Positions 1-24,597 of a DNA stretch of 24,597 nt are shown here, piece by piece (within the stretch, counting starts at the first letter, position 1; the number at the start of each line of letters is the position of its first letter). Location of the stretch: IMG/VR virus record IMGVR_UViG_3300002092_000187, positions 1 to 24,597 of that record. One strand, given 5' to 3'. The notes below the pieces were generated by a model that had not been told where the DNA came from, did not search any database, and was given only the letters and a program-made list of their open reading frames with translations. The position numbers and the translations under genes were made by a program. This DNA comes from a virus (lineage: Duplodnaviria; Caudoviricetes).

Positions 1-2
1 AC

Positions 3-218
3 GGCGAATATCACCGAGAAGATGGCCCGGCAATTGAACATGTAAATGGCGCTAACGTATGGTACCTGAACGGCAAATGGCACCGAGAAGATGGCCCGGC
101 AGTTGAATATGCAGATGGCACTAAAGAATGGTGTCTGAACGGCGACGCAGTAACTGGTTCAGAACTTGATATCATGAAGATGCGAATCTGGATGGAAAAC
201 GGAAAAAACTATTTTTGA
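3..218 (+). CDS. 5'-truncated 23-aa-repeat protein (copy A of the W-Y-L-N-G-K-x-H-R-E-D-G-P-A family; MORN/YwqK-like beta-hairpin repeat)
   Basis: Absent from the ORF track. Read by hand in frame 3: GEYHREDGPAIEHVNGANVWYLNGKWHREDGPAVEYADGTKEWCLNGDAVTGSELDIMKMRIWMENGKNYF, stop TGA 216-218. Paralogous to 1483..1773. Confidence 0.85.
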   Translation, partial: GEYHREDGPAIEHVNGANVWYLNGKWHREDGPAVEYADGTKEWCLNGDAVTGSELDIMKMRIWMENGKNYF

Positions 219-236
219 AAAAAGTGAAAAAACAGG

Positions 237-265
237 TTGACATCGGAAATACGATTTGCTATATT
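237..265 (+). promoter_or_regulatory. sigma70-type early promoter
   Basis: TTGACA (237-242), 17-nt spacer with TG at the extended -10 position, TATATT (260-265); A-rich upstream tract. Confidence 0.8.
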
Positions 266-313
266 AAGAACATAGAGAGAGACAGTCTCTCTCATTTGAA
301 AGGAAATTAAAAA

Positions 314-1414
314 ATGTCTCAAGTGTCTGATCATCTGACGATCACTTCTACTCAAGCTCGCAAGGCTATTCTTACTGCATTCAAGTCTAAGCGGCCCATC
401 TTTCTCTGGGGCCCTCCGGGCATCGGCAAGTCTGAGGTCGTGCAAGAGATCGCTAATGATCTCGGTGGTCACATGATTGACCTGCGTATGGCGCAGATGG
501 AACCTACTGATATTCGTGGTATCCCCTACTTCAATAAGGATATCAACAAGATGGATTGGGCCGAGCCCGTTGATCTTCCTACAGAAGAACTCGCTGCTCA
601 GTATCCTATCATCGTTCTTTTCCTTGATGAAATGAACTCGGCGCCTCCCTCGGTTATGGCTGCTGGTTATCAGTTGATCCTCAATCGTCGGATCGGCAAT
701 TACAAGCTGCCCGACAATGTGGTCATCGTTGCTGCTGGTAACCGTGACAGCGACAAGGGTGTTACGTATCGTATGCCCATGCCCCTCGCTAATCGTTTCG
801 TTCACCTTGAAATGCGGTATGACTTCAATGCGTGGCAGCAATGGGCTGTCAACAAGGGCATTCACAAGGATGTCGTCGGTTATCTGTCTTTCTCTAAGCA
901 AGATGGTTATGACTTTGATGCGAAGTCTTCGTCTCGTGCATTCGCTACGCCTCGTTCGTGGTGTTTCGTGAGCGATCTGCTCGCTGATGAGGATGTTGAT
1001 AACGATACGCTGTTCAATCTCGTTGCCGGTGCTATCGGTGAAGGTCTGGCTACGAAGTTCATGGCGCATCGCAAGGTCGCTGGTCGTATGCCCAACCCTG
1101 CTGATATTCTTTCTGGTAAGGTGAAGGACCTTCAGGTCAAGGAAATCTCTGCGATGTATTCGCTGACGATTTCTATGTGCTATGAACTGAAGGACGCTCT
1201 TGACAACAAGCGTGTTGACGCGAAGAAGTTCCACGAAATGGCTGACAACTTCTTTGACTACATCATGAAGAACTTTGAGACTGAGCTGGTCGTGATGGGT
1301 GCTAAGATCGCTCTTAAGACTTATCGTCTGCCTATTGAGCCCTCTCAGTTGAAGAACTTTGATGATTTCCACAAGAAGTATGGTAAATACATTGTGGAAG
1401 CTGGCAGCAACTAA
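314..1414 (+). CDS. MoxR-like AAA+ ATPase
   Basis: Walker A GPPGIGKS, Walker B LFLDEMN, AAGN sensor, LANRF arginine finger, TPRSW; SD AAGGA upstream; VWA gene nearby. Confidence 0.9.
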   Translation: MSQVSDHLTITSTQARKAILTAFKSKRPIFLWGPPGIGKSEVVQEIANDLGGHMIDLRMAQMEPTDIRGIPYFNKDINKMDWAEPVDLPTEELAAQYPIIVLFLDEMNSAPPSVMAAGYQLILNRRIGNYKLPDNVVIVAAGNRDSDKGVTYRMPMPLANRFVHLEMRYDFNAWQQWAVNKGIHKDVVGYLSFSKQDGYDFDAKSSSRAFATPRSWCFVSDLLADEDVDNDTLFNLVAGAIGEGLATKFMAHRKVAGRMPNPADILSGKVKDLQVKEISAMYSLTISMCYELKDALDNKRVDAKKFHEMADNFFDYIMKNFETELVVMGAKIALKTYRLPIEPSQLKNFDDFHKKYGKYIVEAGSN

Positions 1415-1433
1415 TACAGTTGCTGCATACTGC

Positions 1434-1470
1434 GGGGAGGGGTTTAGAGACATTCCCCTCCCCCTTTTTT
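1434..1470 (+). terminator. intrinsic terminator
   Basis: GGGGAGGGG / CCCCTCCCC stem followed by T6, just after the ATPase stop. Confidence 0.8.
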
Positions 1471-1482
1471 ATCGGAGTAAAA

Positions 1483-1773
1483 ATGTCTGACCAACCTACT
1501 TTACATATGGCTAGAGATGGCACCAAATACTGGTATCTGAACGGCAAAACTCACCGAGAAGATGGCCCGGCAATTGAACGTGCAGATGGCACCAAATACT
1601 GGTATCTGAACGGCAAAACTCACCGAGAAGATGGCCCGGCAGTTGAACGTGCAGATGGCACCAAACTTTGGTATCTGAATGACAAAAGAGTAACTGGTTC
1701 AGAACTTGATGTCATGAAGATGCGAATCTGGATGGAAACCGGAAAGAATTATTTTATGGATAAGGTAGATTAA
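1483..1773 (+). CDS. 23-aa-repeat protein (copy B, complete, 96 aa)
   Basis: SD GGAG 1474-1477, ATG 1483; repeats DGTKYWYLNGKTHREDGPA(I/V)ERA; C-terminal tail shared with copy A. Confidence 0.85.
   Translation: MSDQPTLHMARDGTKYWYLNGKTHREDGPAIERADGTKYWYLNGKTHREDGPAVERADGTKLWYLNDKRVTGSELDVMKMRIWMETGKNYFMDKVD
1516..1680 (+). repeat. 69-bp tandem coding repeat (about 2.4 units)
   Basis: GATGGCACCAAA starts at 1516, 1585 and 1654; units 1 and 2 differ at one base (ATT/GTT). Confidence 0.95.
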
Positions 1774-1776
1774 GGC

Positions 1777-1805
1777 TTGACTTCCGTCTCGGAACCAACT
1801 ATATT
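1777..1805 (+). promoter_or_regulatory. sigma70-type early promoter
   Basis: TTGACT (1777-1782), 17 nt, TATATT (1800-1805); same -10 as the promoter at 237. Confidence 0.7.
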
Positions 1806-1836
1806 GAATATTATGACAACGAAAGGGACTATCTCA

Positions 1837-3129
1837 ATGAGCGATGTTATTTCCCCCACTAAGCGTAAGCGTTCTCGCAGCAAGAAGTTTGAAAATCTAG
1901 TAGGTCCGATGGATCCGAAGATTGACAACGATGCTCGGGAGCGTCTGATAACTGCTCGTATCGGCCTTCTGTTGAAGCATTCTTTCTTCGGAAATCTCGC
2001 TACCCGACTGACGCTCACTAATGCTGATGAATGGTGTTCTACGGCTGCTACTGACGGTCAAAAGTTCTATTACAACTCCCGCTTCATCATGATGCTTCGC
2101 ACTAAGGAAGTTGAATTCCTCGTCGGTCATGAAGTCCTGCATGTTGTTTATGATCACATGGGTCGTCGTGGTACTCGTGACCCTGAAATCTGGAACATCG
2201 CTGATGACTATGCAGTGAATGCAGACCTCAAGCGTCACAAAGTCGGTGAGTTCATCACTACTGTCCCTGCATTGTATGAAGCAAAATATGATGGTATGGC
2301 GGCTGAGGCTATCTATGATGACCTCATGAAAAATGTGCAATACATCAACATTGAAGACCTTTTGGACAAGATGTTTGATGATCACGTGGATGGTGAAGGT
2401 GAAGGTGAAGATAACGACGGCGAAGGCGGTGATAAGAAGGGCAAGGGCCGCCCGCAAATGTCTCCTGAAGAACGCGAGCGTGTCCGTCAAGAAGTGAGGC
2501 AAGCGATCATCAATGCAGCACAGTCTGCTGATGCTGGTTCAATCCCTAAGGGCGTTGAGCGTATGCTTAAGGAACTCACTGCTCCTGTCATGCCCTGGCG
2601 CGAACTCCTTCAGTCTAATCTGACTTCTGCTATCAAGTCTGATTATAGCTGGATGCGTCCTTCTCGTCGCGGTTGGCACATGGATGCAGTGATGCCCGGT
2701 ATGAATCCTGGCGAAGAGATTGATGTCACTGTGTTCATTGATATGTCAGGTTCTATCTCAGCGAAGCAAGGTCAGGCGTTTCTGTCTGAGGTTGCTGGCA
2801 TGATGGAAGCATTTGACGGCTTCAAGATCCGTGTCGCTTGCTTTGATACCGAAGTCTATAACATGCAAGAGTTTACTTCTGAGAACCTTGATACTGTAGA
2901 TGAGTATAAGATCATGGGCGGCGGTGGCACCGACTTTGATTGCATCTTCAAGTATCTCAAGGAAGAAGGCAGTGTCCCTAATCGGCTGATCGTCTTCACG
3001 GACGGGTATCCGGTTGGTTCTTGGGGCGATGCTGACTACTGCGACACGACTTGGATCATTTATGGTGACCCTGATCCTAATCCCCCGTTCGGTTCGTGGG
3101 CGATCTATGATGACCACAAGAAGAAGTAA
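1837..3129 (+). CDS. metallopeptidase-like (HEXXH) plus VWA domain protein, DUF2201-like; MoxR partner
   Basis: HEVLH motif; MIDAS DMSGS, GGGTDF, FTDG. Start moved to ATG 1837 (SD AAAGGGA) because the upstream part of the track ORF overlaps a promoter. Confidence 0.88.
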   Translation: MSDVISPTKRKRSRSKKFENLVGPMDPKIDNDARERLITARIGLLLKHSFFGNLATRLTLTNADEWCSTAATDGQKFYYNSRFIMMLRTKEVEFLVGHEVLHVVYDHMGRRGTRDPEIWNIADDYAVNADLKRHKVGEFITTVPALYEAKYDGMAAEAIYDDLMKNVQYINIEDLLDKMFDDHVDGEGEGEDNDGEGGDKKGKGRPQMSPEERERVRQEVRQAIINAAQSADAGSIPKGVERMLKELTAPVMPWRELLQSNLTSAIKSDYSWMRPSRRGWHMDAVMPGMNPGEEIDVTVFIDMSGSISAKQGQAFLSEVAGMMEAFDGFKIRVACFDTEVYNMQEFTSENLDTVDEYKIMGGGGTDFDCIFKYLKEEGSVPNRLIVFTDGYPVGSWGDADYCDTTWIIYGDPDPNPPFGSWAIYDDHKKK

Positions 3130-3372
3130 GTGAAGACAATTGACGATATTAATCTAGAGACTTGGTTTACCGAGAGGGAACTCTCGGTAAACCCAAAGCA
3201 TTTTGTCAAGACTTCAACACCTATAACACCGGAATCAAAGGCATGGATCCTAGAGAAGTTACACGGTCGCTTCTCTAAGTGCGGCCCAACTAATTTTATA
3301 GATGCTCCTGGCATATGTCCTACTTTTGAAGACCCAAAAGAAGCCGTATTTTACGAATTAACCTTCGGATAA
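3130..3372 (+). CDS. hypothetical phage protein
   Basis: GTG directly after the VWA stop; 80-aa ORF ending FEDPKEAVFYELTFG. Confidence 0.7.
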   Translation: MKTIDDINLETWFTERELSVNPKHFVKTSTPITPESKAWILEKLHGRFSKCGPTNFIDAPGICPTFEDPKEAVFYELTFG

Positions 3373-3395
3373 AAAATACTTTATCACATTTCTAT

Positions 3396-3403
3396 ATTAA
3401 ATA
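3396..3403 (+). promoter_or_regulatory. T4-like late promoter core (ATTAAATA)
   Basis: Intergenic TAAATA core, like the other copies upstream of genes in this window. Confidence 0.5.
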
Positions 3404-3427
3404 CATATGTCATTTAAGGAGATTACA

Positions 3428-4153: not shown

Positions 4154-4166
4154 GGTTATCATGTAG

Positions 4167-4463: not shown

Positions 4464-5365
4464 AACAATACCATGAACTCCTAATTGATATATTAGAAAA
4501 TGGAGGATTGCGTCAGGATAGGACCAACACCGGCACATATAGTGTATTCGGTCGCCAACTAAGATTTGACTTGACCCAGGGCTTTCCAGCAGTCACGACC
4601 AAGAAACTCGCCTGGAATGCTTGCAAGAGTGAACTGCTTTGGTTTTTAGAGGGAAGTGACGATGAACGAAGACTTGCAGAAATCTTACACGGCACAAGAG
4701 ATCCAAAGAACACTACAATATGGACAGGAAATGCTACCGCAGCTTATTGGGAACCCAAAGCAAAGTTCGCCGGCGATCTCGGAAGAGTTTACGGAGTACA
4801 ATGGAGACGATGGAACGAGCATGTTGAACGGAAGCAGTTCGGACCAGCTCGCCTTGGAGAAGGTCGTAGGCTAGCAGTTGATCAGACCGAAGTTGATCAG
4901 ATTGCAATTCTAATTGAAGGTATCAAAAATGATCCAAACGGTCGTAGGCATATCCTTACTGCATGGAATGTAGCAGAACTTGGTCAGATGGCTTTGCCTC
5001 CGTGTCATGTTATGAGTCAGTTTTATGTAAGCAATAATGGCCGTTTAAGCTGCCACATGTATCAAAGAAGTTGTGATACTTATTTAGGAATTCCCTTTAA
5101 TATCGCAAGTTATGCTCTACTTACCCACATGATTGCTCAAGTATGTAACTTGACAGTCGGTGAACTTATTATCAGCACAGGCGATACTCATATATATTCT
5201 AACCATTTGCCTCAGGTAAAGGAACTGCTTTCCCGAACTCCGTTTCCATCACCCACCTTGTGGTTAAATCCTGAAATAAAAGACATTGATAAATTCACTA
5301 TGGATGACATAAAACTTATAGGATATAAAAGTCATCCAGCATTACCCGCTATTATGGCAGTTTAA
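4460..5365 (+). CDS. thyA: thymidylate synthase
   Basis: DRTNTGT, ELLWFL, GRVYGVQWR, GRRHI, LPPCH catalytic Cys, YQRSCD, GIPFNIASY, HIYSNH, C-terminal MAV. Confidence 0.97.
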   Translation: MKQYHELLIDILENGGLRQDRTNTGTYSVFGRQLRFDLTQGFPAVTTKKLAWNACKSELLWFLEGSDDERRLAEILHGTRDPKNTTIWTGNATAAYWEPKAKFAGDLGRVYGVQWRRWNEHVERKQFGPARLGEGRRLAVDQTEVDQIAILIEGIKNDPNGRRHILTAWNVAELGQMALPPCHVMSQFYVSNNGRLSCHMYQRSCDTYLGIPFNIASYALLTHMIAQVCNLTVGELIISTGDTHIYSNHLPQVKELLSRTPFPSPTLWLNPEIKDIDKFTMDDIKLIGYKSHPALPAIMAV

Positions 5366-5385
5366 TGTTAAAAGGTAGTTCTAGG

Positions 5386-5393
5386 GATAAATA
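5386..5393 (+). promoter_or_regulatory. late promoter core (GATAAATA) for the GIY-YIG gene
   Basis: Matches T4 TATAAATA at 7/8; lies 8 nt upstream of SD GGAG. Confidence 0.6.
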
Positions 5394-5411
5394 TAATATA
5401 GGAGAACTTCA

Positions 5412-6221
5412 ATGAAGGGCATATATTATATTGAAAACATAATAAATGGTAAACGATATTACGGTAGTTCAATGAATGTTGAATGGAGGTTAGAACAGCA
5501 CCGAAGAGGATTACGCAAGGATAAACATATCAATGTTTATTTGCAAAGATCATATAATTTACATGGTATAGACAACTTTTCTTTTGCTCTAGTGGAAGAT
5601 ATGGGTAATCCTAGTAGAAAAGAACTGCATTCTCGGGAACAATGGTATATTGATAACAATAAAAATGGCTACAATATAGCACCTGCAAATGGAGGGGATA
5701 CTTTATCAAATCATCCTGACAGAGAAACTATAATTGAACAACGAACCGAAAACTACCGACTGTGGCTAAAATCCTTAAGCGCAGATGAGCGCAAAGAAAG
5801 ATTTAGTAAACCAGGAGAGAGTAATCCAAATTGGCGTAACGGCGGTAGAAAGTTACTATGCTCTGTATGTCTTGTCAATATGATAGAACCTAAGGCTAAT
5901 ACATGTGGTGAGTGCAGAGATAGATCGGGAAAAAATAATCCGTTTTATAACAAAAAACATACAGAAGAAACACTTAAAATTCTAAGAAGCAAAACGCCCT
6001 GGACTAAAGGGGCCACCCCGGAAGATCAATCATATACAAAACAGTATGAAATAATATATCCAGACAACACGAGTAAACAAGTATATGGGCTAAAAGTAAT
6101 CGCTGAGGAATTTAAGGTTAGTATAGCGAATGTTCACGCCACTATCAGTAGAATGAGCAAAGGCAAAATTCCTACCAAAAGTGTGTTTAAGGGCTGTTTA
6201 ATTAAGATCGTAGATAAATGA
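5412..6221 (+). CDS. free-standing GIY-YIG homing endonuclease (Seg-like) with Zn finger and NUMOD3-like motif
   Basis: N-terminal GIY...YYGSS...R...H, conserved E and YN; CSVC..CGEC; NNPFYNKKHTEET; AT-richer than flanks. Confidence 0.88.
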   Translation: MKGIYYIENIINGKRYYGSSMNVEWRLEQHRRGLRKDKHINVYLQRSYNLHGIDNFSFALVEDMGNPSRKELHSREQWYIDNNKNGYNIAPANGGDTLSNHPDRETIIEQRTENYRLWLKSLSADERKERFSKPGESNPNWRNGGRKLLCSVCLVNMIEPKANTCGECRDRSGKNNPFYNKKHTEETLKILRSKTPWTKGATPEDQSYTKQYEIIYPDNTSKQVYGLKVIAEEFKVSIANVHATISRMSKGKIPTKSVFKGCLIKIVDK

Positions 6222-6295
6222 TAGAAATAATATACAATATTCAGTTGACAGACTATGAAAGTCATGCTAGTATCAAAGCCGAAATGGCAGTATGA
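6218..6295 (+). pseudogene. stranded duplicate of the thyA 3' end (25-codon mini-ORF)
   Basis: Translates MIEIIYNIQLTDYESHASIKAEMAV*; the last 18 aa align with the thyA end IKLIGYKSHPALPAIMAV (9/18 identical). Confidence 0.8.
6245..6273 (+). promoter_or_regulatory. possible sigma70-type promoter upstream of the sugar cluster
   Basis: TTGACA, 17 nt ending TGC, TAGTAT; lies within the thyA remnant, so it may be coincidental. Confidence 0.45.
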
Positions 6296-6351
6296 ATAAG
6301 GCAACCTTTGATGACAACGCACACATTTTTTGGAAGTTGAAATTTGAATGA
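6292..6351 (+). other. 19-codon mini-ORF or gene remnant
   Basis: MNKATFDDNAHIFWKLKFE*, with ATGA overlaps at both ends (6292 and 6348). Confidence 0.45.
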
Positions 6352-7286
6352 GAATCCTCGTTACCGGCGGTATGGGCTTCATCGGTCACAATGTAGTGTC
6401 TCAGCTGGAAGATTTGGGACATGATGTTGAAATTATTGATAGCTTAACTGATTACGGAATAATTCCGAAAGATGAGTTGAGTAGGTTGATTGATGAACGC
6501 AGTTCGCAACTTTCTGCGACATGCCATCTGCATGACATTTCTAGCAAAGGTCACGGGATAGATACTTTATTCCGCACCTTTAAACCAGAGACCGTGATTC
6601 ATCTCGCGAGCATACCTAATCAGAAGATAGCAGGTTTTGCTCCTGTCATATCCGCGAGAACGATGACAGAAGGTCTGTTAAACATATGTGAGCAATCTCG
6701 CCAGTACAATGTAAAGAGATTTGTCTATATCAGTAGCAGCATGGTGTATGGTGATTTTGCTGACGGCGTGAGAGAGGATGCTACCTGTTCTCCCGCAGGA
6801 TTATACGGTATCCTGAAACTTGCAGGCGAACGACTCGTAGAAGATTACAGTCGTCGCGGTAGCTTTGAGCATGTCATCATCCGCCCTAGTGCCGTATATG
6901 GTCCCCGTGATATTAAAGACAGAGTGATATCAAAGTTTTTATGGGCAGCTATGCTTGACGAAGTTCTACCGGTCAATGGTTCAGATGAATCTTTAGACTT
7001 TAGTTATGTTGACGATGTAGCCTCAGGCATCGTAGGAGCGTCACTGAGCGATGCTACTGCCGGAAAGACATACAACATCACTCGTAGCCGAAGCCGTAGC
7101 TTGCTAGATGCTGCTGAATTAGCGGTGAGAATAGCAGGTAAGGGTAGAATTGAGGTCAAGGATCGCGATAAAAATTTCCCTCAGAGAGGCTTATTAAATA
7201 TAGATGCTGCTCGTATAGATTTTGGCTTTGAACCAAAAATTGACCTAGAAGAAGGCCTCCAACTCTATTATGAATACCTTATGTAA
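6348..7286 (+). CDS. NAD-dependent nucleotide-sugar epimerase/dehydratase (extended SDR)
   Basis: GGMGFIG Rossmann motif, HLAS, SSSMVYG, YGILK catalytic YxxxK, VYGP. Confidence 0.93.
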   Translation: MRILVTGGMGFIGHNVVSQLEDLGHDVEIIDSLTDYGIIPKDELSRLIDERSSQLSATCHLHDISSKGHGIDTLFRTFKPETVIHLASIPNQKIAGFAPVISARTMTEGLLNICEQSRQYNVKRFVYISSSMVYGDFADGVREDATCSPAGLYGILKLAGERLVEDYSRRGSFEHVIIRPSAVYGPRDIKDRVISKFLWAAMLDEVLPVNGSDESLDFSYVDDVASGIVGASLSDATAGKTYNITRSRSRSLLDAAELAVRIAGKGRIEVKDRDKNFPQRGLLNIDAARIDFGFEPKIDLEEGLQLYYEYLM

Positions 7287-8496
7287 ATTACAATGGACCG
7301 GACTCACTGTTGATACAAACGGTGACATAAAACCGTGCTGCATATCCAATGCATACATTAAAAAAGATGACGGAACTAATTTCAATCTAGGAAAAGACAC
7401 GGTTGAAGAGATTTATAACAGCAAGAGCATAGTTGATATGCGACAGCAGATGCTTGACGGTGTTGTAGTAGCAGGATGCGAAGAATGCTATGAGATGGAA
7501 AAGTTTAGCAGAAGAAGCAACAGACTCATCTACAATCAGATATACAAGGATGTAAAGGCTGAGGATACAAGCACAGATCCGGCTGTCAAGTTTATTGATT
7601 TGAGATTTGGTAATCTATGTAATCTGAGTTGTCGCAGTTGTAATCCTAAGGCTAGTAGTCAGTTTCAACGAGAAATTGAAGTTATGCCATCTGCTATAAA
7701 AAAATATCAAAACTTCTTCCAAGAAGATATCAATTCTTGGTATCAGACTCCCGTGTTTAAGGATAATCTAGAAAAACAGTTAGATAGCATTGAAATCATC
7801 TCTCTTACTGGGGGTGAACCTACAATAATACAACAAAACATGGATTTGCTTGCCTCTCTAGTGTCTTCCGGTAGGAGTAAGAAAATAGTTCTTACCATAA
7901 ATTCCAACATGACTAATACTAATCCTAAATTTTACAATCTCATAAAAGAATTTAAGTATGTAGTGTTCATGGCAAGCATAGATGGAGTAGGTTCTATGCA
8001 AGAATATCTGAGATATCCTAGCAAATGGTCGGCTATGGACGCTAACATCAAAAAATTGTTAGGGCTAGGAGATAATATCATTATATCACCTACTCCGGTC
8101 ATACAGACTACTAACCTTAACAAGTGCGTAGAGTTGTTTGAATATTTTGAGTCCTATAACAGAGCAGCCAAACGAACATTGATACGCATTCAGCCCATCA
8201 ATCTAACTGGACCTGAACATCTAAATCTGCTATACCTACCCACCGAGTTCAAGATAAAATGCTGGGAAAAGATTCAGCAATGGGTAGATACGCGATGCGA
8301 GTATCAACCTGATAGTTTTCACGAAATTATTGATGGCATAAAAGCAAAATGCAATACGCAAGTTGATGAGACGGAAAGCAAACATCAATTGTGTAGATAT
8401 AAAGAATACAATTCTCTGTTTGATTTGCATAGAAAAGTAAAGCTTTCAGACATTGACCCTGAATTAGACATGGAAATTAGCAAGGTACTCGCGTGA
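7270..8496 (+). CDS. radical SAM protein with N-terminal SPASM/twitch-like domain
   Basis: CNLSCRSC (CxxxCxxC), GGEP, SIDG..YLRYPS.W; N-terminal C..PCC..CEEC. Confidence 0.9.
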   Translation: MNTLCKLQWTGLTVDTNGDIKPCCISNAYIKKDDGTNFNLGKDTVEEIYNSKSIVDMRQQMLDGVVVAGCEECYEMEKFSRRSNRLIYNQIYKDVKAEDTSTDPAVKFIDLRFGNLCNLSCRSCNPKASSQFQREIEVMPSAIKKYQNFFQEDINSWYQTPVFKDNLEKQLDSIEIISLTGGEPTIIQQNMDLLASLVSSGRSKKIVLTINSNMTNTNPKFYNLIKEFKYVVFMASIDGVGSMQEYLRYPSKWSAMDANIKKLLGLGDNIIISPTPVIQTTNLNKCVELFEYFESYNRAAKRTLIRIQPINLTGPEHLNLLYLPTEFKIKCWEKIQQWVDTRCEYQPDSFHEIIDGIKAKCNTQVDETESKHQLCRYKEYNSLFDLHRKVKLSDIDPELDMEISKVLA

Positions 8497-9563
8497 TATT
8501 CTCAAAAATATCTCACTTCGGGCTTAAGAGACAGACTGAAAACCTTAAGGCCGAGTTGTTAGATGCTACCTATGAGGCTATGAAAGAAGGCCAATTCCTT
8601 GAAGGTCCCTTCACACGGGAGTTTGAAGCATGGCTTTGTAAAAGAACAGGAAGCCAGTACGCAACCTTAGTACACAGTGGAACACAAGCACTTGAGTTCA
8701 TAGCGAAGAGCATTCGTGACATGAATGATAGCAAGGTTGTACAGTACAATCCTGACAAGATCGTACTTCCTAACCTAACATATCCTGCAACTCTCAATGC
8801 TTTTTTGAACACTGGCTGGGAAGTAGAGTTAGTAGACACCGATAAAAATGGATTGTTGCCGGACCAATATCTGTTAAATGTAGGCAAACCTACATGTTAT
8901 GTAGGACTATATGGCGCTTCTACTAACCGAATGGCATGGCGAGGAACAATAGTTGACGGGGCTCAACATTGGCTAGTCGCAGATGGCAACATAGGTGATG
9001 CTATGGCTATTAGTTTTGACCCTACCAAGAACCTACCATCATCTGGAAACGGCGGCGCCGTCGTAACAAACAATTCGTACATACATGACTTCATAGAAAA
9101 CTACAAAAATAACGGTAAAGGGAAGAATTTCCTAACTCCGGGTACCAATAGCAAGATGAGTGAGATTGACTGTGCCCATCTGATGGTAAGAACCAAATAC
9201 ATAGATCAATGGCAAGAACGGCGAAAGCAGATCAGATTATATTACATAGAGGAGTTCAAAGACATACCAGTACGATGCTTGAGCGACGGTTTTGAGAGAC
9301 ATGCAGATCAAAAATTTGTGATATACACTGATCGTCGGTCACAATTACAGCATGAAATGAATCAGCTAGGCATAGAAACAAAGATACATTACGATAGGCC
9401 CCTGAGTGAGTTGGCTGTTGCGAAGGATTTGGTTAAGCCTGATTTTTTAAGTGTAAGCAGCATGTTATGTAGGGGTATATTGAGCCTTCCTATCTATCCC
9501 GAGTTGACAGACAGTGAGGTAGAATATATCGCGGATAGAATAAAATTATTTTTCGCTAAATAA
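8493..9563 (+). CDS. DegT/DnrJ/EryC1/StrS PLP-dependent sugar aminotransferase
   Basis: SGTQAL, DGAQ, SFDPTKNL (PLP lysine), GGAVVTN, LSLPIYPEL. Confidence 0.93.
   Translation: MIFSKISHFGLKRQTENLKAELLDATYEAMKEGQFLEGPFTREFEAWLCKRTGSQYATLVHSGTQALEFIAKSIRDMNDSKVVQYNPDKIVLPNLTYPATLNAFLNTGWEVELVDTDKNGLLPDQYLLNVGKPTCYVGLYGASTNRMAWRGTIVDGAQHWLVADGNIGDAMAISFDPTKNLPSSGNGGAVVTNNSYIHDFIENYKNNGKGKNFLTPGTNSKMSEIDCAHLMVRTKYIDQWQERRKQIRLYYIEEFKDIPVRCLSDGFERHADQKFVIYTDRRSQLQHEMNQLGIETKIHYDRPLSELAVAKDLVKPDFLSVSSMLCRGILSLPIYPELTDSEVEYIADRIKLFFAK
9555..9562 (+). promoter_or_regulatory. late promoter core (GCTAAATA)
   Basis: TAAATA core ending 5 nt before ATG 9568. Confidence 0.6.
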
Positions 9564-13881: not shown

Positions 13882-14805
13882 ATGAGCGGTTCAACCTCCC
13901 TAATCAAAACACCATACAAGAAAACCAACTTTAAGACGAAGAAGGAACTTGATGAGTTCGTAGCGTGCTGTGATCCTGATTTCGGTTATCTATATTTTAT
14001 GGATAACTTCTTCGTGATTCAGCATCCTACTAAGGGAAGCATGAACTATCATCCATGGAATTATCAAGAACGATTGATTGACACTTATCATCGCTATCGT
14101 TTCTCTATTTCACTGATGCCTCGTCAATCAGGTAAATCAACTTCAGCCGCTGGTTATCTGCTTTGGTATGCGATGTTTGTCCCTGATTCTACTATCCTTA
14201 TTGCAGCACACAAGTACACCGGTGCACAAGAAATTATGCAGCGTATACGATATGCGTATGAAAATTGTCCAGATCACATTAAAGCTGGCGTCACCACCTA
14301 CAACAAAGGTTCTATTGACTTTGAGAACGGTTCACGCATCGTGTCTGCTACAACGACTGAAAACACAGGTCGTGGTATGTCTATCACACTTCTATATCTT
14401 GACGAATTTGCGTTCGTCCGTCCCTCAATCGCTACTGAATTTTGGACATCTATCACTCCTACGCTAGCAACCGGTGGTAAAGCGATCATCACTTCAACTC
14501 CAAACTCGGATGAAGATCAGTTTGCTCTTATCTGGAAGATGGCCAACAAGACTGAAGATGAGTTCGGCAACACGACTGAGTTAGGCAAGAACGGATTTAA
14601 AGCATATCGTGCTTACTGGCGAGAACAGCCCGGTAGAGATGACATATGGGCAGACGAGATGCGGGCCCAGCTCGGAGATGATCGGTTCAATCGGGAGATT
14701 GGGTGCTTTGCGCAAAGCACCCAATTAAAACTAAAGGACTCAAGCGGTAAAATATTTACGGCTACCATGGCTGAGCTTGAAAAGTTGTTGGAAAATGATA
14801 AATAA
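13882..14805 (+). CDS. terL: terminase large subunit N-half (ATPase domain) fused to a split-intein N fragment
   Basis: T4 gp17-like: YQ motif, PRQSGKS Walker A, LYLDEFAF Walker B, ITSTPN; residues 275-307 are intein-like. Confidence 0.93.
   Translation: MSGSTSLIKTPYKKTNFKTKKELDEFVACCDPDFGYLYFMDNFFVIQHPTKGSMNYHPWNYQERLIDTYHRYRFSISLMPRQSGKSTSAAGYLLWYAMFVPDSTILIAAHKYTGAQEIMQRIRYAYENCPDHIKAGVTTYNKGSIDFENGSRIVSATTTENTGRGMSITLLYLDEFAFVRPSIATEFWTSITPTLATGGKAIITSTPNSDEDQFALIWKMANKTEDEFGNTTELGKNGFKAYRAYWREQPGRDDIWADEMRAQLGDDRFNREIGCFAQSTQLKLKDSSGKIFTATMAELEKLLENDK
14704..14805 (+). mobile_element. split intein N fragment (33 aa)
   Basis: After extein ...RFNREIG: CFAQSTQLKLKDSSGKIFTATMAELEKLLENDK* (Cys1, block A-like). 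Confidence 0.85.
14797..14804 (+). promoter_or_regulatory. late promoter core (GATAAATA) overlapping the IntN stop
   Basis: Could drive the endonuclease and the terL C-half. Confidence 0.55.
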
Positions 14806-14863
14806 AGATGTAGTTCGCGGAATGGGGATTCCCAACTACTCTAACGCTTTGGAGAGCATCAGC

Positions 14864-15538
14864 ATGACTATTTACTCAAAACGAAACCCGCCTGTTGGAT
14901 TCTATGTATATGCGTACTTCCGAAAGGACGGTACTCCTTACTATATAGGAAAAGGTAACGCAAAACGAGCCTGGCAGCTACACGAAAACATCAAAAGACC
15001 GGCGTATGAGTATATTGTAATATTAGCAGGCGGCTTAACGGAACTATGGGCCTTCGCACTAGAACGTTGGTATATCCGCTGGTATGGTAGAAAGAATATA
15101 GGCTCTGGAATATTACGAAACCGAACAGACGGGGGCGAAGGTACGTCTGGTTGTCAGCCTTGGAATACCGGATTAAAACTTCCTGGCCAAGGTGGCCGGA
15201 AGAAGGGAACTAAATGGTCTGCTGATGAACGTAGATCACAAGATAAAGCACGGTCAGCCATCGGCTACTATGATTATTTAAAATCAGCCGAGAGAGCTAA
15301 GAAGATCGGAGATTCGCAGCGAGGAAGAGTTGGTACGTCACTGGGAAAAATATGGTACAACGACGGAACTAAAGAATACTACGGGAACGCGGTACCACCT
15401 GGATTTATTAAGGGACGATTGATAACCAATTCCTCTAAGATAGGCATGCGGTGGTTCAACAATGGGTTAGTTAATAAACAATATAAGCAAGGTGAAGAAC
15501 CGGAAGGATTCGTAAGTGGACGTGTTAATAAAAAATAA
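14864..15538 (+). CDS. GIY-YIG homing endonuclease between the terL halves
   Basis: FYVYAY...PYYIGKG...R, LE, LRNRTDGGEG; two C-terminal W(Y/F)N(D/N)G...P.GF..GR repeats; start at ATG 14864 after GGAG. Confidence 0.87.
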   Translation: MTIYSKRNPPVGFYVYAYFRKDGTPYYIGKGNAKRAWQLHENIKRPAYEYIVILAGGLTELWAFALERWYIRWYGRKNIGSGILRNRTDGGEGTSGCQPWNTGLKLPGQGGRKKGTKWSADERRSQDKARSAIGYYDYLKSAERAKKIGDSQRGRVGTSLGKIWYNDGTKEYYGNAVPPGFIKGRLITNSSKIGMRWFNNGLVNKQYKQGEEPEGFVSGRVNKK

Positions 15539-15848
15539 ATTAGGATTAGAAATCCTTACTGACACTGGTTGGCAATCATTTGATGGCATAGTTAACAAAG
15601 GGGTCAAGCATACTGTTATTGTGAAAACAGCGGCCGCCGAAGTTACGCTCACCCCTGACCACGAAGTGTTCTTATCCAACTTGGAAAAAACTCGTGCTGA
15701 TCAACTAAAGCCCGGTGATCTGGTTTGCACTCTATCAGGAACAACTGAGGTAATTTCGGTTAAAGAAAATTGCTTGGAATCAGTGTATGATATAGTAAAT
15801 GCCGGCGCAAACAAAAGGTTCTACGCAAATGATATTCTTTGCTCCAAT
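15516..15848 (+). mobile_element. split intein C fragment (~111 aa)
   Basis: ILTDTGW, block B TPDH, LKPGD, block F VYDI, block G FYANDILCSN followed by Cys+1 at 15849. Confidence 0.88.
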
Positions 15849-16574
15849 TGCGAATTTATCATCGCCGACGAGACACTTATCAATCCAAACACACTACTGA
15901 TGCTTGAAGGCACTGAACCAACACATCGCATGGGACAGATTCGCTGGTACAAGACTCCTGAGAAGGGTAAGCTATATGTTGTAGCACTTGATCCATCATT
16001 GGGTACAGGTGGTGATCCCGCAGCTATTCAGATTTTTGAAGCAAGCACAACTACTCAGATTGGCGAATGGAAGCACAACAAGACTGATATTCCTAGCCAG
16101 GTCAAACTACTCGCAGAGATCACTAAGTATATCGCTGAGATTACAGGTGAACCTAATAACATCTATTACTCTGTAGAGAATAACTCCATCGGCGAAGCAT
16201 CGCTACTCTCACTCGCAGAGTATGGTGAATCAAACATTCAGGGCATCTTCATGAGTGAGCCGGGAAAGAAGAGAAAAGGATTCACAACTACTAACAAACC
16301 GAAGTTAGCAGCCTGTGCTAAATTCAAAACACTATTAGAATCAAAGAAGATGACTATTCATAGTCGTTCACTAATCAGCGAACTCAAGGCCTTCGTCGCT
16401 CACGGCGGCAGCTATGCAGCTAAAGTAGGGGATCATGATGATTTGGTTATGGCTTCTCTGCTAGCAGTCCGGATCATGCTGCAACTTTCAGACTACCATG
16501 GTGACCTAGAATCACACATCCGTGATTATGAAGACATAATTGCACCTCTCCCATTCTTTGCTGTCTTTAATTGA
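15516..16574 (+). CDS. terL: split-intein C fragment fused to the terminase large subunit C-half (nuclease domain)
   Basis: GTG start after GAAGGA. Intein to Asn111, then CEFIIADE..., ALDPSLGTGGD, VENNSIG, HDDLVMA (RNase H-like terminase nuclease motifs). Confidence 0.92.
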   Translation: MDVLIKNKLGLEILTDTGWQSFDGIVNKGVKHTVIVKTAAAEVTLTPDHEVFLSNLEKTRADQLKPGDLVCTLSGTTEVISVKENCLESVYDIVNAGANKRFYANDILCSNCEFIIADETLINPNTLLMLEGTEPTHRMGQIRWYKTPEKGKLYVVALDPSLGTGGDPAAIQIFEASTTTQIGEWKHNKTDIPSQVKLLAEITKYIAEITGEPNNIYYSVENNSIGEASLLSLAEYGESNIQGIFMSEPGKKRKGFTTTNKPKLAACAKFKTLLESKKMTIHSRSLISELKAFVAHGGSYAAKVGDHDDLVMASLLAVRIMLQLSDYHGDLESHIRDYEDIIAPLPFFAVFN

Positions 16575-16587: not shown

Positions 16588-16592
16588 CTATT

Positions 16593-18796: not shown

Positions 18797-18884
18797 TCAT
18801 ATTGTGTTAGTTGTCTCCTTGACAGCAAAACATAAAACTAACTTAAAGCTCAACATAGGCACATTTAAAAAGGAAAAAACTAAA

Positions 18885-19907: not shown

Positions 19908-19924
19908 ATATGGGAGAAAAAAAC

Positions 19925-20155: not shown

Positions 20156-20165
20156 GGAAATAACA

Positions 20166-20669: not shown

Positions 20670-21732
20670 GCCGTTTGATATAAGCAAGTTTCGCCGCGAT
20701 ATTACTAAGGCTATTGACGGCCTTAGCATCGGGTTTCACGACCCAACAGATTGGATAAGTACAGGTAACTATGCACTCAATTATCGTATTAGCAGTGATT
20801 TTAATAAAGGCATTCCTCTTGGCAAGGTTACTGTCTTTGCCGGAGAATCAGGAGCAGGAAAATCATTTATCTGCTCCGGTAATCTGGTTCGTAATGCCCA
20901 AGAGCAAGGTATCTTTGTTGTTCTGATTGACACAGAAAATGCTCTAGATGAAGCTTGGCTTCATGCATTGGGTGTGTCAACTGACGAAAGTAAGTTGCTG
21001 AAACTCAACATGGCAATGATTGATGATGTTGGTAAGACTATCAGTGAATTCATGAAGTCATACAAGCTCCTGCCACCGGAAGATCGCCCGAAGATTCTGT
21101 TTGTTATTGACAGTCTCGGCATGTTGCTCACTCCTACTGATGTAAATCAGTTTGAAGCAGGTGATATGAAGGGTGATATGGGTCGCAAGCCTAAGGCACT
21201 GACTGCTCTTGTTCGTAATTGTGTCAACATGTTCGGTTCATACAATGTAGGTATGGTTTGCACAAATCATACATATGCTTCACAAGATATGTTTGATCCA
21301 GACGACAAGATTTCAGGTGGTTCAGGATTCGTCTATGCATCTTCTATCGTCGTTGCAATGAAGAAGCTCAAGCTCAAGGAAGACGAAGACGGCAACAAGA
21401 TCAGCGAAGTGCGTGGTATTCGTGCTGCGTGTAAGGTAATGAAGACTCGTTACGGCAAACCTTTTGAATCTGTTCAAGTCAAGATTCCATATGAGACTGG
21501 CATGAATCCTTATTCAGGCTTACTTGATATGTTTGAGGCTATGGAACTTCTCAAGAAGGAAGGCAATTCTCTTGTCTATACTTGTGTTGATGGAACTACC
21601 ATCAAGAAGTTCCGAAAAGGTTGGGAACGTAATGACGACGGTTGCCTTGATCGGGTGATGCTGGAGTTCACTAAAAAGCCTCGTGCTAGTCTAAATATTG
21701 CTAGCGTAGAAGAAGAGGAACTTGCAGAATGA
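20662..21732 (+). CDS. uvsX: RecA/UvsX recombinase
   Basis: STGNYALN, GESGAGKS Walker A, IDTENALD, VIDSLG, NHTY, SGG; gp32/UvsY context. Confidence 0.95.
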   Translation: MAKPFDISKFRRDITKAIDGLSIGFHDPTDWISTGNYALNYRISSDFNKGIPLGKVTVFAGESGAGKSFICSGNLVRNAQEQGIFVVLIDTENALDEAWLHALGVSTDESKLLKLNMAMIDDVGKTISEFMKSYKLLPPEDRPKILFVIDSLGMLLTPTDVNQFEAGDMKGDMGRKPKALTALVRNCVNMFGSYNVGMVCTNHTYASQDMFDPDDKISGGSGFVYASSIVVAMKKLKLKEDEDGNKISEVRGIRAACKVMKTRYGKPFESVQVKIPYETGMNPYSGLLDMFEAMELLKKEGNSLVYTCVDGTTIKKFRKGWERNDDGCLDRVMLEFTKKPRASLNIASVEEEELAE

Positions 21733-21992
21733 GTCTAGCACTAATTAATGAAATTTGGAAAGTATTAAAGCCCAGCATAGAAACAGGTGATATTGGTTCT
21801 GCTGCTGAGACGCTTGTCAACTACCTAGTTGATGAAGCATACTCTCCGGCTGAAATTAAGCAGGTGTTTAGACTAGATTCTGATGTAAAAGGAGCCTTGT
21901 CTTATTATCTGGAAACCCCTGAGTGGGGCCTCTTAGAGGACGAAGAAGAAGACTACTCTATTGATTACTATGATGATGAAGAAGATTACTAA
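21729..21992 (+). CDS. hypothetical protein with acidic C-terminus
   Basis: Overlap-coupled between uvsX and uvsY; tail LEDEEEDYSIDYYDDEEDY. Confidence 0.8.
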   Translation: MSLALINEIWKVLKPSIETGDIGSAAETLVNYLVDEAYSPAEIKQVFRLDSDVKGALSYYLETPEWGLLEDEEEDYSIDYYDDEEDY

Positions 21993-22450
21993 TGACATGG
22001 TACAGCCGGATTACACAAGATTTAAGCGTATTACCGGACTTTATAACTCATTACGAAAATGAAATCATTTCTGCTAAATCAGATGTAAGGGTATATGGCA
22101 ATGTGGAAAAGAATATTGCTGCATTGCCAGGAATTACAGAGTATCGTTTCAACCAACTTCAAGAGGTTGAAGCGGTACTCAATTTTCTCAATATACAACT
22201 GAGACAGATTCGTAGAAAGCATTTTCAGAAGTATCTTGAGGGTTATGCCCGTGCATTGACCTCGCGTGATGCTGAGAAGTATGTTGATGGTGAACAGGAA
22301 GTCATTGACTTTGAAGTCCTCATCAATGAAATTGCTTTAATGAGAAATAAGTATCTAGGAATTATGAAAGGAATTGAATCTAAGAACTTCATGCTAGGGC
22401 ATGTGGTTAGGTTAAGAACTGCTGGAATGGAAGACGTAACACTTGGATAA
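21992..22450 (+). CDS. uvsY: recombination mediator, UvsY-like
   Basis: 152-aa helical protein, KYVDGE...GIESK..ML...V.LR.AG pattern; position after uvsX. Confidence 0.75.
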   Translation: MTWYSRITQDLSVLPDFITHYENEIISAKSDVRVYGNVEKNIAALPGITEYRFNQLQEVEAVLNFLNIQLRQIRRKHFQKYLEGYARALTSRDAEKYVDGEQEVIDFEVLINEIALMRNKYLGIMKGIESKNFMLGHVVRLRTAGMEDVTLG

Positions 22451-22455
22451 ACAAG

Positions 22456-23646
22456 ATGACAATTGATAAAGCATATGTAGTTGGTTATGGACTCGTGGAT
22501 ACTCTAGGAAACAATCCAAAAGATTGCTTTAAGCGTATGCTAGATGATACTGATTACTCTTCTGACATTCCGGCCATGATAGAAGAAAATCATAAGATTT
22601 ATCGGGCATATGTCACTGATGAATCAAACCTAGTGTTGCCTGAAGGATGGGTGAGTCGTGGAACTACCTTGACTCAAAAGATGGCAATGCATTGTACTAA
22701 ACAAGCGTTGGAGATGGCAAATCTCCCGCATAGTAGCAATGTGGCTGTTATTTTTAGCACTTGTTTGAATGATACTGAGACTATTGAAGAGTATTTCCCT
22801 AAACTCGTAGCAAACAAAAGGATTAACCCGAGGATAGTGGTCAATCGCATTTTGGATATGGCCAGTTGTCATATCAATAGTCATTGGCAATATCTAGGAA
22901 TAAACACCTCTGTGTTTGCATCATGTGCAACTGGCATTTTCTCTATAGACTATGCGATGCGACTGCTTGATGAATACGATTATGTTATCTGTGGAAGCGG
23001 TGATGCTGGTTCACATCGTATTGCTATGAAGTATTTTATGGCGATCAATGCTCTCGGAAATGTTAACACCCCGTTTGATGACACTCGTGAAGGATTTGTC
23101 ATGGGAAATGGCACTGGTGTGCTAGTATTAGCATCTCAGAAATCAGTAGAGAAATACGGGGCAACAGTCCACGCTACACTTTATCCTGCTGGTTTGGCGA
23201 GCGATGCGTTTGATCAGACTTCCCCTGCCCAAGATGGAAGGGGTGCTAGGTTAGCTATGAGTAAGGCACTTGCTAGCAATGTTTCTATTGACGCGGTATC
23301 TGCCCATGCTACTAGCACTCCGGTCGGAGATATCATTGAATACGCTGCTGTAACCGACTGTGTTAAGGATATTCCTATCTATGCACCGAAATCAAAGATT
23401 GGTCATACACTCGCAGGTGCTGGCATAGTAGAAACAATCTATGCTATTGAATCTATGAAGTTTGGTATCATTCCTCATATTCATAATCTAAAGGAAGCAT
23501 CAATGGATGTTCATAATTGTTTAGTGCGTGAGAATAAGAAGTTTGATGATAAACCAATCTTAAGAACCTTAAATAATTCGTTTGGATTTGGCGGCAAGTG
23601 TGCTGCACAGATCATTGAAGTTGATCGGAGAACACAATGGCTGTAA
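22456..23646 (+). CDS. beta-ketoacyl-ACP synthase (FabF/FabB-like)
   Basis: ASCATG catalytic Cys, AHATST and KSKIGHTLAGAG His motifs, PFD..REGFVMG, NSFGFGG. Confidence 0.93.
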   Translation: MTIDKAYVVGYGLVDTLGNNPKDCFKRMLDDTDYSSDIPAMIEENHKIYRAYVTDESNLVLPEGWVSRGTTLTQKMAMHCTKQALEMANLPHSSNVAVIFSTCLNDTETIEEYFPKLVANKRINPRIVVNRILDMASCHINSHWQYLGINTSVFASCATGIFSIDYAMRLLDEYDYVICGSGDAGSHRIAMKYFMAINALGNVNTPFDDTREGFVMGNGTGVLVLASQKSVEKYGATVHATLYPAGLASDAFDQTSPAQDGRGARLAMSKALASNVSIDAVSAHATSTPVGDIIEYAAVTDCVKDIPIYAPKSKIGHTLAGAGIVETIYAIESMKFGIIPHIHNLKEASMDVHNCLVRENKKFDDKPILRTLNNSFGFGGKCAAQIIEVDRRTQWL

Positions 23647-24347
23647 CCGACTGGAATTTACTTTATAGTAATATGGCGACTACTCCTACTCCTACACCCA
23701 TAGAGCGACATATTATTATAGGGGCAGATTTAATCACACTTAGTTGTACCCGCTATCGTCTAACTAATGAGGATCGTGCCGGTAACTTTGCACCCCCTAT
23801 TTCATCTCCTTTTGAAACGGAGCAAATTACAGATGAAGACCGCATTCTTGCCGACAAGATAAAATCACACTTTGGAAAAAAGTTGATGGTGTTGACGTTA
23901 CGCGGTACCGAATTAACTGCATTCCGCAAAGATTTGAGCATTTTAGTTAATACTGACTACTCTAAGAATGACTATTCATATCCCGACAAGTTTATGCCTA
24001 TGGCTTACAAACTGCCATACTTCTATCATTATGATAAGGAACTCATCAAAATCTTCGGCGGAGAGTATCGCAATATCAAAGATAGTAACACCTGGCCTAG
24101 CGAAAAAAGCCAGCTTACGTTCATCAATAAGATTCGGAATCACCTCAAAAAAGATGTCACGTTTGAATATTGGTTTTCTGATGAGAGGGATAACCGTATC
24201 TTATTAAAAATTGATCGTAAGAATCCACTCCTTCCTGTATTTGATTTGATCATCAAGGAGCCGATATCTGTCAGTGGAACCTTCGCTTACTGTGAACGAG
24301 AGGAACTGCGTTTCTACCAAGCTAGAAATTGGCAATTTGCTATCTAA
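23637..24347 (+). CDS. hypothetical phage protein
   Basis: 236-aa ORF overlapping the KAS stop, SD GGAG. Confidence 0.75.
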   Translation: MAVTDWNLLYSNMATTPTPTPIERHIIIGADLITLSCTRYRLTNEDRAGNFAPPISSPFETEQITDEDRILADKIKSHFGKKLMVLTLRGTELTAFRKDLSILVNTDYSKNDYSYPDKFMPMAYKLPYFYHYDKELIKIFGGEYRNIKDSNTWPSEKSQLTFINKIRNHLKKDVTFEYWFSDERDNRILLKIDRKNPLLPVFDLIIKEPISVSGTFAYCEREELRFYQARNWQFAI

Positions 24348-24370
24348 TTTCATATTAGGTCACTTTTCAG

Positions 24371-24399
24371 TTGACATTGGTTACCCATTTTGCTATGTT
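24371..24399 (+). promoter_or_regulatory. sigma70-type early promoter
   Basis: TTGACA, 17 nt ending TTTGC, TATGTT; same architecture as the 237-265 promoter. Confidence 0.78.
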
Positions 24400-24431
24400 G
24401 AATAGTAGAGGTTGAACAAGGTGATACGATA

Positions 24432-24597
24432 ATGGAAACCCCGACAAAGCATGTTCTTCCGAGTGGCACCAAAGAATGGTTCCGAAACGGCAAATATCAC
24501 CGAGAAGATGGCCCGGCAATTGAATATGCAGATGGCACCAAAAAATGGTATCTGAACGGCAAACTTCACCGAGAAGATGGTCCGGCAGTTGAACGTG
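24432..24597 (+). CDS. 3'-truncated 23-aa-repeat protein (copy C)
   Basis: Absent from the ORF track. SD AAGGTG, ATG 24432: METPTKHVLPSGTKEWFRNGKYHREDGPAIEYADGTKKWYLNGKLHREDGPAVER...; open to the window end. Confidence 0.85.
   Translation, partial: METPTKHVLPSGTKEWFRNGKYHREDGPAIEYADGTKKWYLNGKLHREDGPAVER

Follow-up and report, generated by a model that had tools for sequence, protein, structure and literature searches.

Introduction

MORN proteins, among them MORN4 in complex with Myo3a (6JLE), MORN1 (6T68, 6T69 and 6T4D) and the junctophilins, are built from repeats with a period of 23 residues. The same period, seen as a 69-nt spacing in the DNA, occurs in three genes of the virus record IMGVR_UViG_3300002092_000187, a linear stretch of 24,597 nt that was analyzed as a whole (hereafter, the window) and is part of a larger phage genome. 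We call them repeat genes A, B, and C; the unit consensus is xWYLNGKxHREDGPAxExAxGxK. Its W..NGKxH stretch resembles the YEGEWxNGKxH of MORN repeats, as given in the available part of PMC7725318, and the predicted structure, a single-layer β-hairpin sheet with a C-terminal helix, is also alike, with MORN proteins as the best PDB matches. However, the MORN motifs GxG and YEGEW (same part of PMC7725318) are absent and a REDGPA loop is found instead, and the units have one extra residue between W and NG. Furthermore, the concerted evolution and the hypervariable codons described below are not seen for MORN proteins in the portions of the literature at hand. The repeat is predicted to act like a MORN sheet without being a member of the MORN family.

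Diversity-generating retroelements (DGRs) likewise keep the frame fixed while codons on a presumed binding face are hypervariable, but the present genes show no reverse transcriptase (RT), adenine bias, or single template, and their diversity sits among expressed-looking paralogues. Amoebal giant viruses also have multigene repeat families in large viral genomes (ankyrin, FNIP, and MORN expansions), which are proposed, in the available part of PMC5753266, to act by protein–protein interaction; the family described here is instead found in bacteriophages and bacterial islands, with diversifying selection at the level of the codon. The PeSL cassettes of T4-type phages, according to the available part of PMC2839356, are variable small genes at sigma-70-type promoters, with AT-rich upstream DNA and a polyG/polyC stem-loop, and they are empty or swapped in relatives, like the slots of the repeat genes. 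However, PeSL shuffling, of which excised mini-circles are a further mark, moves unrelated ORFans, whereas here one family fills many slots and exchanges patches smaller than a gene, and genes A and B have no upstream promoter of their own.

Results

Each unit contains a 21-nt core (Table 1). A first-pass annotation, made from the sequence alone, had listed the three open reading frames (ORFs) and six 23-codon units, the core being identical in five of them and one having GGT, and all of this was confirmed: A is open at its 5′ end and C at its 3′ end, the core with GGT is the last one, and the spacing is 69 nt. Its lists of replaced codons were also correct (TAC/CTT/GAA/AAA/GTA before W, TAT/TGG/ACT/CTT before H, and CAT/TAT/CGT after E), but its count of variable codons was too low, since variation is also seen in the codons after A (I/V/F), before K, and after W, as well as in the D/N codon. 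No further core match with ≤5 mismatches was found on either strand of the window, and 100 mononucleotide shuffles gave at most one such match.

The focal set for comparisons between units consists of the window, G001, and G002, with 16 complete units (4 + 7 + 5) from five or six genes. Units that a contig end truncates were not counted, and G003 was left out as a duplicate of G002. The terminal 83 nt of G001 overlap exactly with positions 1–83 of the window, its upstream gene is the same as in the locus of the sister phage L002 (about 86% DNA identity to the window, with the same order A–MoxR–B–vWA), and its upstream sequence is seen as a loose end in sequencing run X1. The units of G002 have the same codons as the focal ones, and the start of its tail is a loose end in runs X2, X4, X5, X7, and X9. 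No overlap joins G002 to the window end, and we infer that it belongs to the same or a near-identical phage. For the wider comparison, 66 viral records were cut to 46 by dropping those sharing ≥30% identical units, and 29 of these have ≥6 units. Over these 29 records, H, R, G, and P of the core are 99–100% conserved, partly owing to the extraction pattern.

Ten of the 23 codons are invariant at the DNA level in all 16 focal units. The fixed codons include CGA and CCG, which make up only 7% of the Arg codons and 16% of the Pro codons in seven window genes, and the fixed scaffold of the sister phage is a different one. The synonymous difference (pS) of the scaffold is 0.06 within the focal phage and 0.15 within the sister, but 0.42 between the two, compared with 0.39 for MoxR, 0.41 for vWA, and 0.46 for a third ordinary gene. 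Thus, the silent sites of the scaffold drift as freely between the sisters as those of normal genes, yet they are homogenized within each genome. The ends of the genes behave in the same way. Within one genome, the head of gene A differs from that of gene B at 1 and 4 of 45 nt, while orthologous heads differ at 14 and 12; for the tails, the corresponding values are 4 and 1 of 66 nt within a genome and 14 and 13 between orthologues. The paralogues are therefore closer to each other than the orthologues are. The silent codon difference between genes of one record has a median of 0.18 (27 records with more than one gene), compared with a median of 0.60 and a minimum of 0.10 between records (406 pairs). 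In the four units of the window alone, the scaffold pS is 0, and the nonsynonymous difference (pN) at the five variable codons described below is 0.48. These results show that the scaffold is homogenized within the genome by concerted evolution, as had been proposed from the six window cores. Codon bias or a universal DNA motif was considered as the cause and rejected, since the fixed codons include rare ones and the synonyms fixed in other genomes are not the same. By contrast, pS is saturated (0.75–0.82) in bacterial arrays of the repeat from Oxalobacteraceae, so homogenization appears to be a property of the phages.

Against this uniform background, five codons are diversified. In the focal units, pN/pS (pairwise Nei–Gojobori; pairs within a genome are not independent) is 4.2, 5.0, 2.2, 3.0, and 1.6 at codons 1, 8, 16, 18, and 22, with a pooled value of 3.3 (bootstrap 2.5–4.7). 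The same five codons are the most diverse positions over 27 other records, and pN exceeds pS at them in 25, 26, 19, 21, and 24 of the 29 virus records, respectively. The records that depart from this pattern are mostly those with high pS; among the 16 records with pS < 0.3, pN exceeds pS in 16, 16, 16, 14, and 16. Codons 16 and 20 keep nonsynonymous polymorphisms of a single base, whereas silent sites of a single base are fixed, and in one record all of the 51 units are distinct. The third base of codon 18 is T in 16/16 focal units (R, Y, H, D, G) and G in 8/8 sister units (G, R, E), which suggests that the diversity was regenerated after the split of the two phages. The excess of amino acid changes at these codons shows diversifying selection, which the first-pass annotation had supposed and which a per-codon calculation now bears out, both in the focal phage and recurrently across the 29 records.

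The copies also exchange sequence. Four gametes are present at 66 of 143 informative site pairs, and the association between variable codons in 11 records has a mean z of 0.4–1.9 at ≤6 nt and about 0 beyond 24 nt. A strain from a separate study (runs X4 and X7) differs in gene B: a contig whose anchor is the unique flank of this gene shows D>N at 1654 and L>V at 1666–1668, and both of these alleles, N and V, occur in paralogues. This contig has seven differences in 1624–2100; four of them are listed, only one of these lying beyond 1690. The two sister records have 2 and 4 units in gene B, which is either real or an assembly collapse. The pattern shows that short patches move between copies with free reassortment, in agreement with the gene conversion or unit shuffling suggested earlier; the movement would probably proceed through UvsX/UvsY-type recombination, both genes being present in the window. 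We hold this account of how the repeat family evolves with high confidence. A special role of the 21-nt core as a crossover hot spot is not supported: linkage within a cassette is only slightly above linkage across the core at equal distance.

Among the contig pieces listed from four runs, none spans the gene B repeats, so the order and number of units inside one gene are provisional. In X1, a possible source run, the listed pieces 1483–1544, 1515–1560, and 1551–1613 match the window with no differences. The summed contig depth in X1 is 593–625 at the cores and 17–22 on the flanks, and it was not used as a copy number.

AlphaFold2 models have a predicted local distance difference test score of 87 for gene B and 91 for the four-unit B protein of the sister, and they show repeating short strands with a C-terminal helix. 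The top rows of a Foldseek search of the PDB are mostly MORN proteins, with a best E of 0.017 for the short model and 1.3e-4 for the long one (MORN4/Myo3a), and VIA places MORN4 (6JLE) first for the long model (Z 7.9, root-mean-square deviation 4.3, 113 residues aligned). Thus, the predicted fold is a MORN-like single-layer sheet of β-hairpins in which the MORN motif is absent. DSSP assigns strands at unit positions 16–17, 23–4, and 7–8 and turns at 19–21 and 5–6. The corresponding hairpin register would pair 18:22, 17:23, 16:1, 4:7, 3:8, and 2:9, and one side would thus carry positions 1, 3, 8, 16, 18, and 22. This set, 26% of which is Tyr, includes each of the five hypervariable positions. 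The variable residues thus appear to share one face, as judged from the predicted strand register rather than from coordinates. No hydrophobic segment was found in the focal proteins.

YwqK-type antitoxins are encoded beside their cognate toxin. In the window, no adjacent toxin is annotated, the neighbors being MoxR, the vWA peptidase, and an ORF without assignment, and the three window proteins have no match to Pfam MORN or MORN_2 (PF02493, PF07661) at E ≤ 0.01. Of the earlier likening to MORN/YwqK-type repeats, the MORN part holds as a predicted fold, while the YwqK part is without support.

Promoters were sought as consensus matches in 84.6 kb of focal DNA, in regions selected for holding repeat genes. 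Of 16 strict motifs, five lie 3–18 nt after the stop of a repeat gene, and three precede one. All five focal genes whose 3′ end is visible have a promoter motif at most 25 nt from their stop, compared with 3 of 116 other ORFs, and the two sister genes likewise stop just before one; in G012, the three genes read (3/3) end inside the −35 box. An early-type promoter stands in front at three of five visible 5′ ends. Promoter-proximal slots therefore hold repeat genes in this lineage. Of the PeSL features, the sigma-70 consensus promoter at the junction of the variable gene is present at 5/5 focal genes, and the polyG/polyC stem-loop with promoter is present at the MoxR–vWA slot, the sole slot that was folded.

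These slots are often without a repeat gene. Among 80 MoxR loci (near-duplicates included), 78 have none, and only the two sister records have them, which rules out a functional coupling of the repeat genes to MoxR/vWA. In one empty-site relative (L178), the MoxR stem-loop is joined straight to the vWA promoter. The gap spans 78–1547 nt among the 75 loci with vWA. As for whole relatives, G008 has one repeat gene, the complete G009 and G010 have none, G011 has none, and G012 has five matches, so that two of three complete relatives lack the gene altogether. The family is dispensable. For gene C, no relatives of its two upstream genes were found from which an empty site could be read. As a separate observation, the interval from the MoxR stem-loop to the vWA promoter (L176–L255) is a general cargo slot, in which the small unrelated ORFs vary among relatives.

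The family is large. Among limited candidates, 5,520 homologues of similar length and 848 longer ones were found, and related protein clusters number 36,615 at E ≤ 0.001 and 23,047 (50% identity) at E ≤ 1e-10. Only 5 of 50,697 GenBank phage records have a match, including Atu_ph07 and the podophage P12053L, in which the member is gene 09 of 56, 3.5 kb from the left end; the phage carriers span genomes of 39 kb to about 490 kb. Structural matches occur in the giant viruses Mimivirus, Megavirus, and Harvfovirus. In bacterial genomes, 246 stretches were confirmed. Janthinobacterium and Duganella have arrays of seven genes flanked by MobC and a relaxase-like gene; for the latter, L107 gives a Pfam E of 2.7e-4, which is below the cut-off, and L118 gives no hit. 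The other bacterial copies are single genes in ordinary contexts. The repeat genes of the Oxalobacteraceae arrays (L107:5408–10604, L118:4499–9215, L153, L155, and L133) are translationally coupled. Most of these array genes end in a basic tail, K..KRxKI, a similar tail being found on a nonrepeat neighbor, and this tail of the island copies could be a type IV secretion signal.

From 91 homologues with long nonrepeat parts, 50 were scanned for domains. Most add no known domain; single or paired proteins carry DUF3310, MazG, dGTP diphosphohydrolase, PcfJ, poly(A) polymerase, InPase, or the RepB C-terminal domain. Fusions to DUF3310, MazG, or dGTP diphosphohydrolase recur in several independent records (L012, L073, P0177, P0178, P0194, and P0202). 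Similar short leaders ending in Glu are found on long homologues (P0151, P0211, P0234, P0239, and L071) and on the window ORFs 10852 and 11326. These leaders appear to resemble the head-packaging leaders of T4-like internal proteins, and by this analogy they suggest injected forms of the repeat. A docking tail common to unrelated proteins is not seen for the two focal tails, whose strong tblastn matches among the collected loci were all repeat genes.

Searches of annotated families gave little. A precomputed PF07661 hit is listed for 2 of 240 homologues, and three homologues carry the automatic source label 'antitoxin component YwqK'. A PDB sequence search gave nothing significant (best E 0.17), no NCBIfam or PADLOC family was above the cut-off, PHROGs gave only weak matches of unknown function, and the ESM Atlas gave unnamed viral clusters. 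DUF6745 (PF20530, function unknown) has the HxxDGPA motif in common with the window proteins, and many long homologues pass its cut-off, but only through summed short repeat hits. The best stretches cover mostly profile positions from about 50 to 105 of 206; gene A scores 16 bits against a cut-off of 27, and B and C have no hit. No paper naming DUF6745 was found, nor was a literature description of the HREDGPA repeat family; the main text of Iyer et al. 2021 (PMC7824862) has no occurrence of MORN, and its supplements might list the family.

The features of the window that concern the repeat genes are collected in Table 1.

Table 1. Repeat genes, cores, and neighboring features in the window.
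Feature	Position	Strand	Evidence
Repeat gene A, 3′ part: two cores and helical tail; 5′ part beyond contig start	1..218	+	ORF 3–218, G001 overlap
21-nt core (H-R-E-D-G-P-A codons), copy 1	12..32	+	
21-nt core, copy 2	81..101	+	
Sigma-70-type promoter consensus, 11/12, 18 nt past gene A stop, before MoxR	237..265	+	consensus match only
MoxR-type AAA ATPase (context gene), with gene A in one flanking slot and gene B in the other	314..1414	+	
polyG/polyC stem-loop and T-run after MoxR, terminator-like	1434..1469	+	−21.6 kcal/mol, z −2.16
Repeat gene B (96 aa, complete), made of a head strand, two whole units of 23 aa, a closing hairpin, and a helical tail	1483..1773	+	
21-nt core, copy 3	1552..1572	+	
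21-nt core, copy 4	1621..1641	+	
Sigma-70-type promoter consensus, 10/12, 3 nt past gene B stop, before vWA	1777..1805	+	consensus match
Metallopeptidase–vWA (DUF2201), MoxR partner, context gene	1837..3129	+	
Sigma-70-type promoter consensus before repeat gene C	24371..24399	+	consensus match
5′ part of repeat gene C with two cores (24498, 24567); 3′ end beyond contig	24432..24597	+	

The window comes from a large T4-like freshwater phage and represents one piece of its genome. The window encodes MoxR, its peptidase–vWA partner, thymidylate synthase, a T4-like terminase, a gp32-like SSB, RecA/UvsX, and UvsY, and its RecA is 64–70% identical to that of 337–490-kb phages (Atu_ph07, CBB, and GAP32). 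The MoxR–vWA pair is a feature of group 2.2 jumbo phages, according to the available part of Iyer et al. (PMC7824862). At least half of the words of the first 9 kb are present in six freshwater or lake sequencing runs and one marine run, and three runs are possible sources of the window. Both the start and the end of the contig lie inside repeat genes.

Several other features of the window were seen. A β-ketoacyl synthase (FabF-like, with both Pfam domains) is encoded at 22456–23646 and has no relative in the viral contig scan. In 5412–9563, a GIY-YIG/NUMOD3 homing endonuclease after thymidylate synthase is followed by a sugar epimerase, a radical SAM/SPASM protein, and a DegT aminotransferase, and the stretch 5365–6580 is apparently missing in the sister phage. 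The terminase large subunit is fractured over 13882–16574. The final short stretch of its N-terminal ATPase ORF begins at a Cys. Between the terminase ORFs lies one of 253 aa, which has a GIY-YIG-like start and no Pfam hit, and the third ORF has a weak Intein_splicing match at its start, followed by Terminase_6C. The arrangement suggests an intein that is split in an atypical way and accompanied by a free-standing endonuclease, and it appears similar to described terminase split inteins.

Discussion

We favor, by a modest degree of confidence, the reading that the repeat genes encode a recombination-shuffled set of small MORN-like binders that act in the host, probably against host proteins early in infection. 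The proposal builds on the homogenization of silent sites within a genome and their drift between genomes, with paralogues closer than orthologues, and on pN > pS at codons 1, 8, 16, 18, and 22; short patches pass between copies, probably by UvsX/UvsY-type recombination. Each unit would add strands to a single-layer sheet, with W, L, K, H, E, and K facing one side and the Tyr-rich positions 1, 3, 8, 16, 18, and 22 the other. In this lineage, copies occupy cargo slots just upstream of early-type promoters, slots that in relatives are empty or hold other genes. The cytoplasmic products would then bind strain-variable host proteins, most likely targets in defense or host take-over, and such binding would maintain the diversity. 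The early, intracellular action on these targets is suggested by this setting, and the anti-defense or toxin-neutralizing role put forward in the first-pass annotation is plausible from the same context.

Several observations weigh against this reading or its parts. The within-genome pairwise pN/pS values are not independent, and pS ≥ pN in several records (L055, L075, and L066). Recurrent mutation can also yield four gametes, the strain evidence for exchange comes from a single study, and the pooling of G002 with the window is not backed by an overlap. The Foldseek TM-scores are only 0.41–0.45, the VIA Z of 7.9 is tied with those of unrelated sheets (TarM 7.3 and OspA 7.0), and for the 96-aa model VIA ranks MORN4 24th (Z 3.9). 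The single variable face rests on DSSP and the hairpin register, and the analogy with MORN4 is imperfect, since its target side carries conserved residues (PMC8774113, in the part available). Promoter adjacency is not family-wide, being found for 12 of 185 distinct genes, and for 0/1 in G008 and 0/5 in G004 (by pattern). No promoter motif precedes gene A or gene B, and the transcription of these two would have to come from read-through.

A bolder form of the proposal, to which we give some credence while doubting it more than we believe it, is an RT-free, antibody-like system. Recombination among 69-bp units would continuously recombine the Tyr-rich binding face, copies would spread via early promoters, and selection would keep many anti-defense specificities. 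The module would also serve giant viruses and mobilizable islands, where the basic tail may deliver it through conjugation.

It is also possible, but unlikely, that the conserved face (W, H, R, E, and K) binds one fixed partner or ligand, while the other face varies only so that host sensors or proteases are evaded or so that near-identical repeats do not aggregate with each other. Myo3a is bound by MORN4 on the concave side that bears the conserved residues, according to the available part of the review PMC8774113, the near invariance of H, R, G, and P would fit such a partner, and some long homologues are fused to enzymes (MazG, DUF3310, and dGTP diphosphohydrolase). However, escape would favor the sweep of one new allele, not many per genome, as in the record where 51/51 units are distinct, and the richness of the variable positions in Tyr and other aromatic residues suits an interface.

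Slightly more doubtful is a role in conflict among mobile elements, in which the proteins would be antitoxin-like neutralizers of toxins from other phages or islands, or would act in superinfection exclusion. Members are found on lytic phages, giant viruses, and mobilizable islands between MobC and a relaxase, and three homologues bear the YwqK label. However, that label is automatic, no toxin gene is annotated beside any of the three window copies, and PADLOC and NCBIfam gave no family above the cut-off.

We disfavor as improbable a neutral explanation, by which recent duplication and gene conversion keep the frame alike, exposed positions tolerate any residue, and there is no repertoire function. 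The family is dispensable, rapid horizontal evolution is a general trait of repeats when selection is relaxed (PMC5120217, in the part available), and branch migration may stall at multibase mismatches and spare them. However, relaxation predicts pN close to pS, while pN is 2–5 times pS. Nor are the silent scaffold sites constrained, since they drift between the sisters as in normal genes, and single-base nonsynonymous polymorphisms at codons 16 and 20 persist where single-base silent sites are fixed.

It is most improbable that these are virion-surface or adsorption proteins whose variation widens the host range. Single-layer β-sheets do match phage spike proteins (Z 4.7–6.7), and some leaders of long homologues appear to resemble the head-packaging sequences of T4-like internal proteins. 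However, the proteins are short, have no anchor domain, and are not encoded in structural modules; early-type promoters precede three of the five genes whose 5′ end is visible, and copies are also found in bacterial islands. Finally, that the genes are DGR targets, as the kept third base of many variable codons (NNT, NNC, as AAY-derived DGR codons would have) might suggest, is rejected, since RVT_1 is present in 0/5 records (two ≥90% complete; the focal phage genome only partial), silent A sites are no more variable than others (0.127, compared with 0.143–0.144 for C/G/T), and CGA and GAA, with silent A, are fixed in 16/16 focal units.

Large phages devote many genes to small proteins without a known role, and this family is very large. 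The signature of an arms race is clear at five fixed codons, and the repeats account for assembly breaks in such genomes. Because the cultured phages P12053L and Atu_ph07 carry members, the function can be tested now. If the proteins are binders, they would give a direct handle on the host proteins that phages fight, and they would represent a compact binder scaffold and a second phage route to combinatorial diversity besides DGRs. If the antibody-like form of the proposal is true, the family would be a natural, evolvable β-sheet binder scaffold with tens of thousands of variants.

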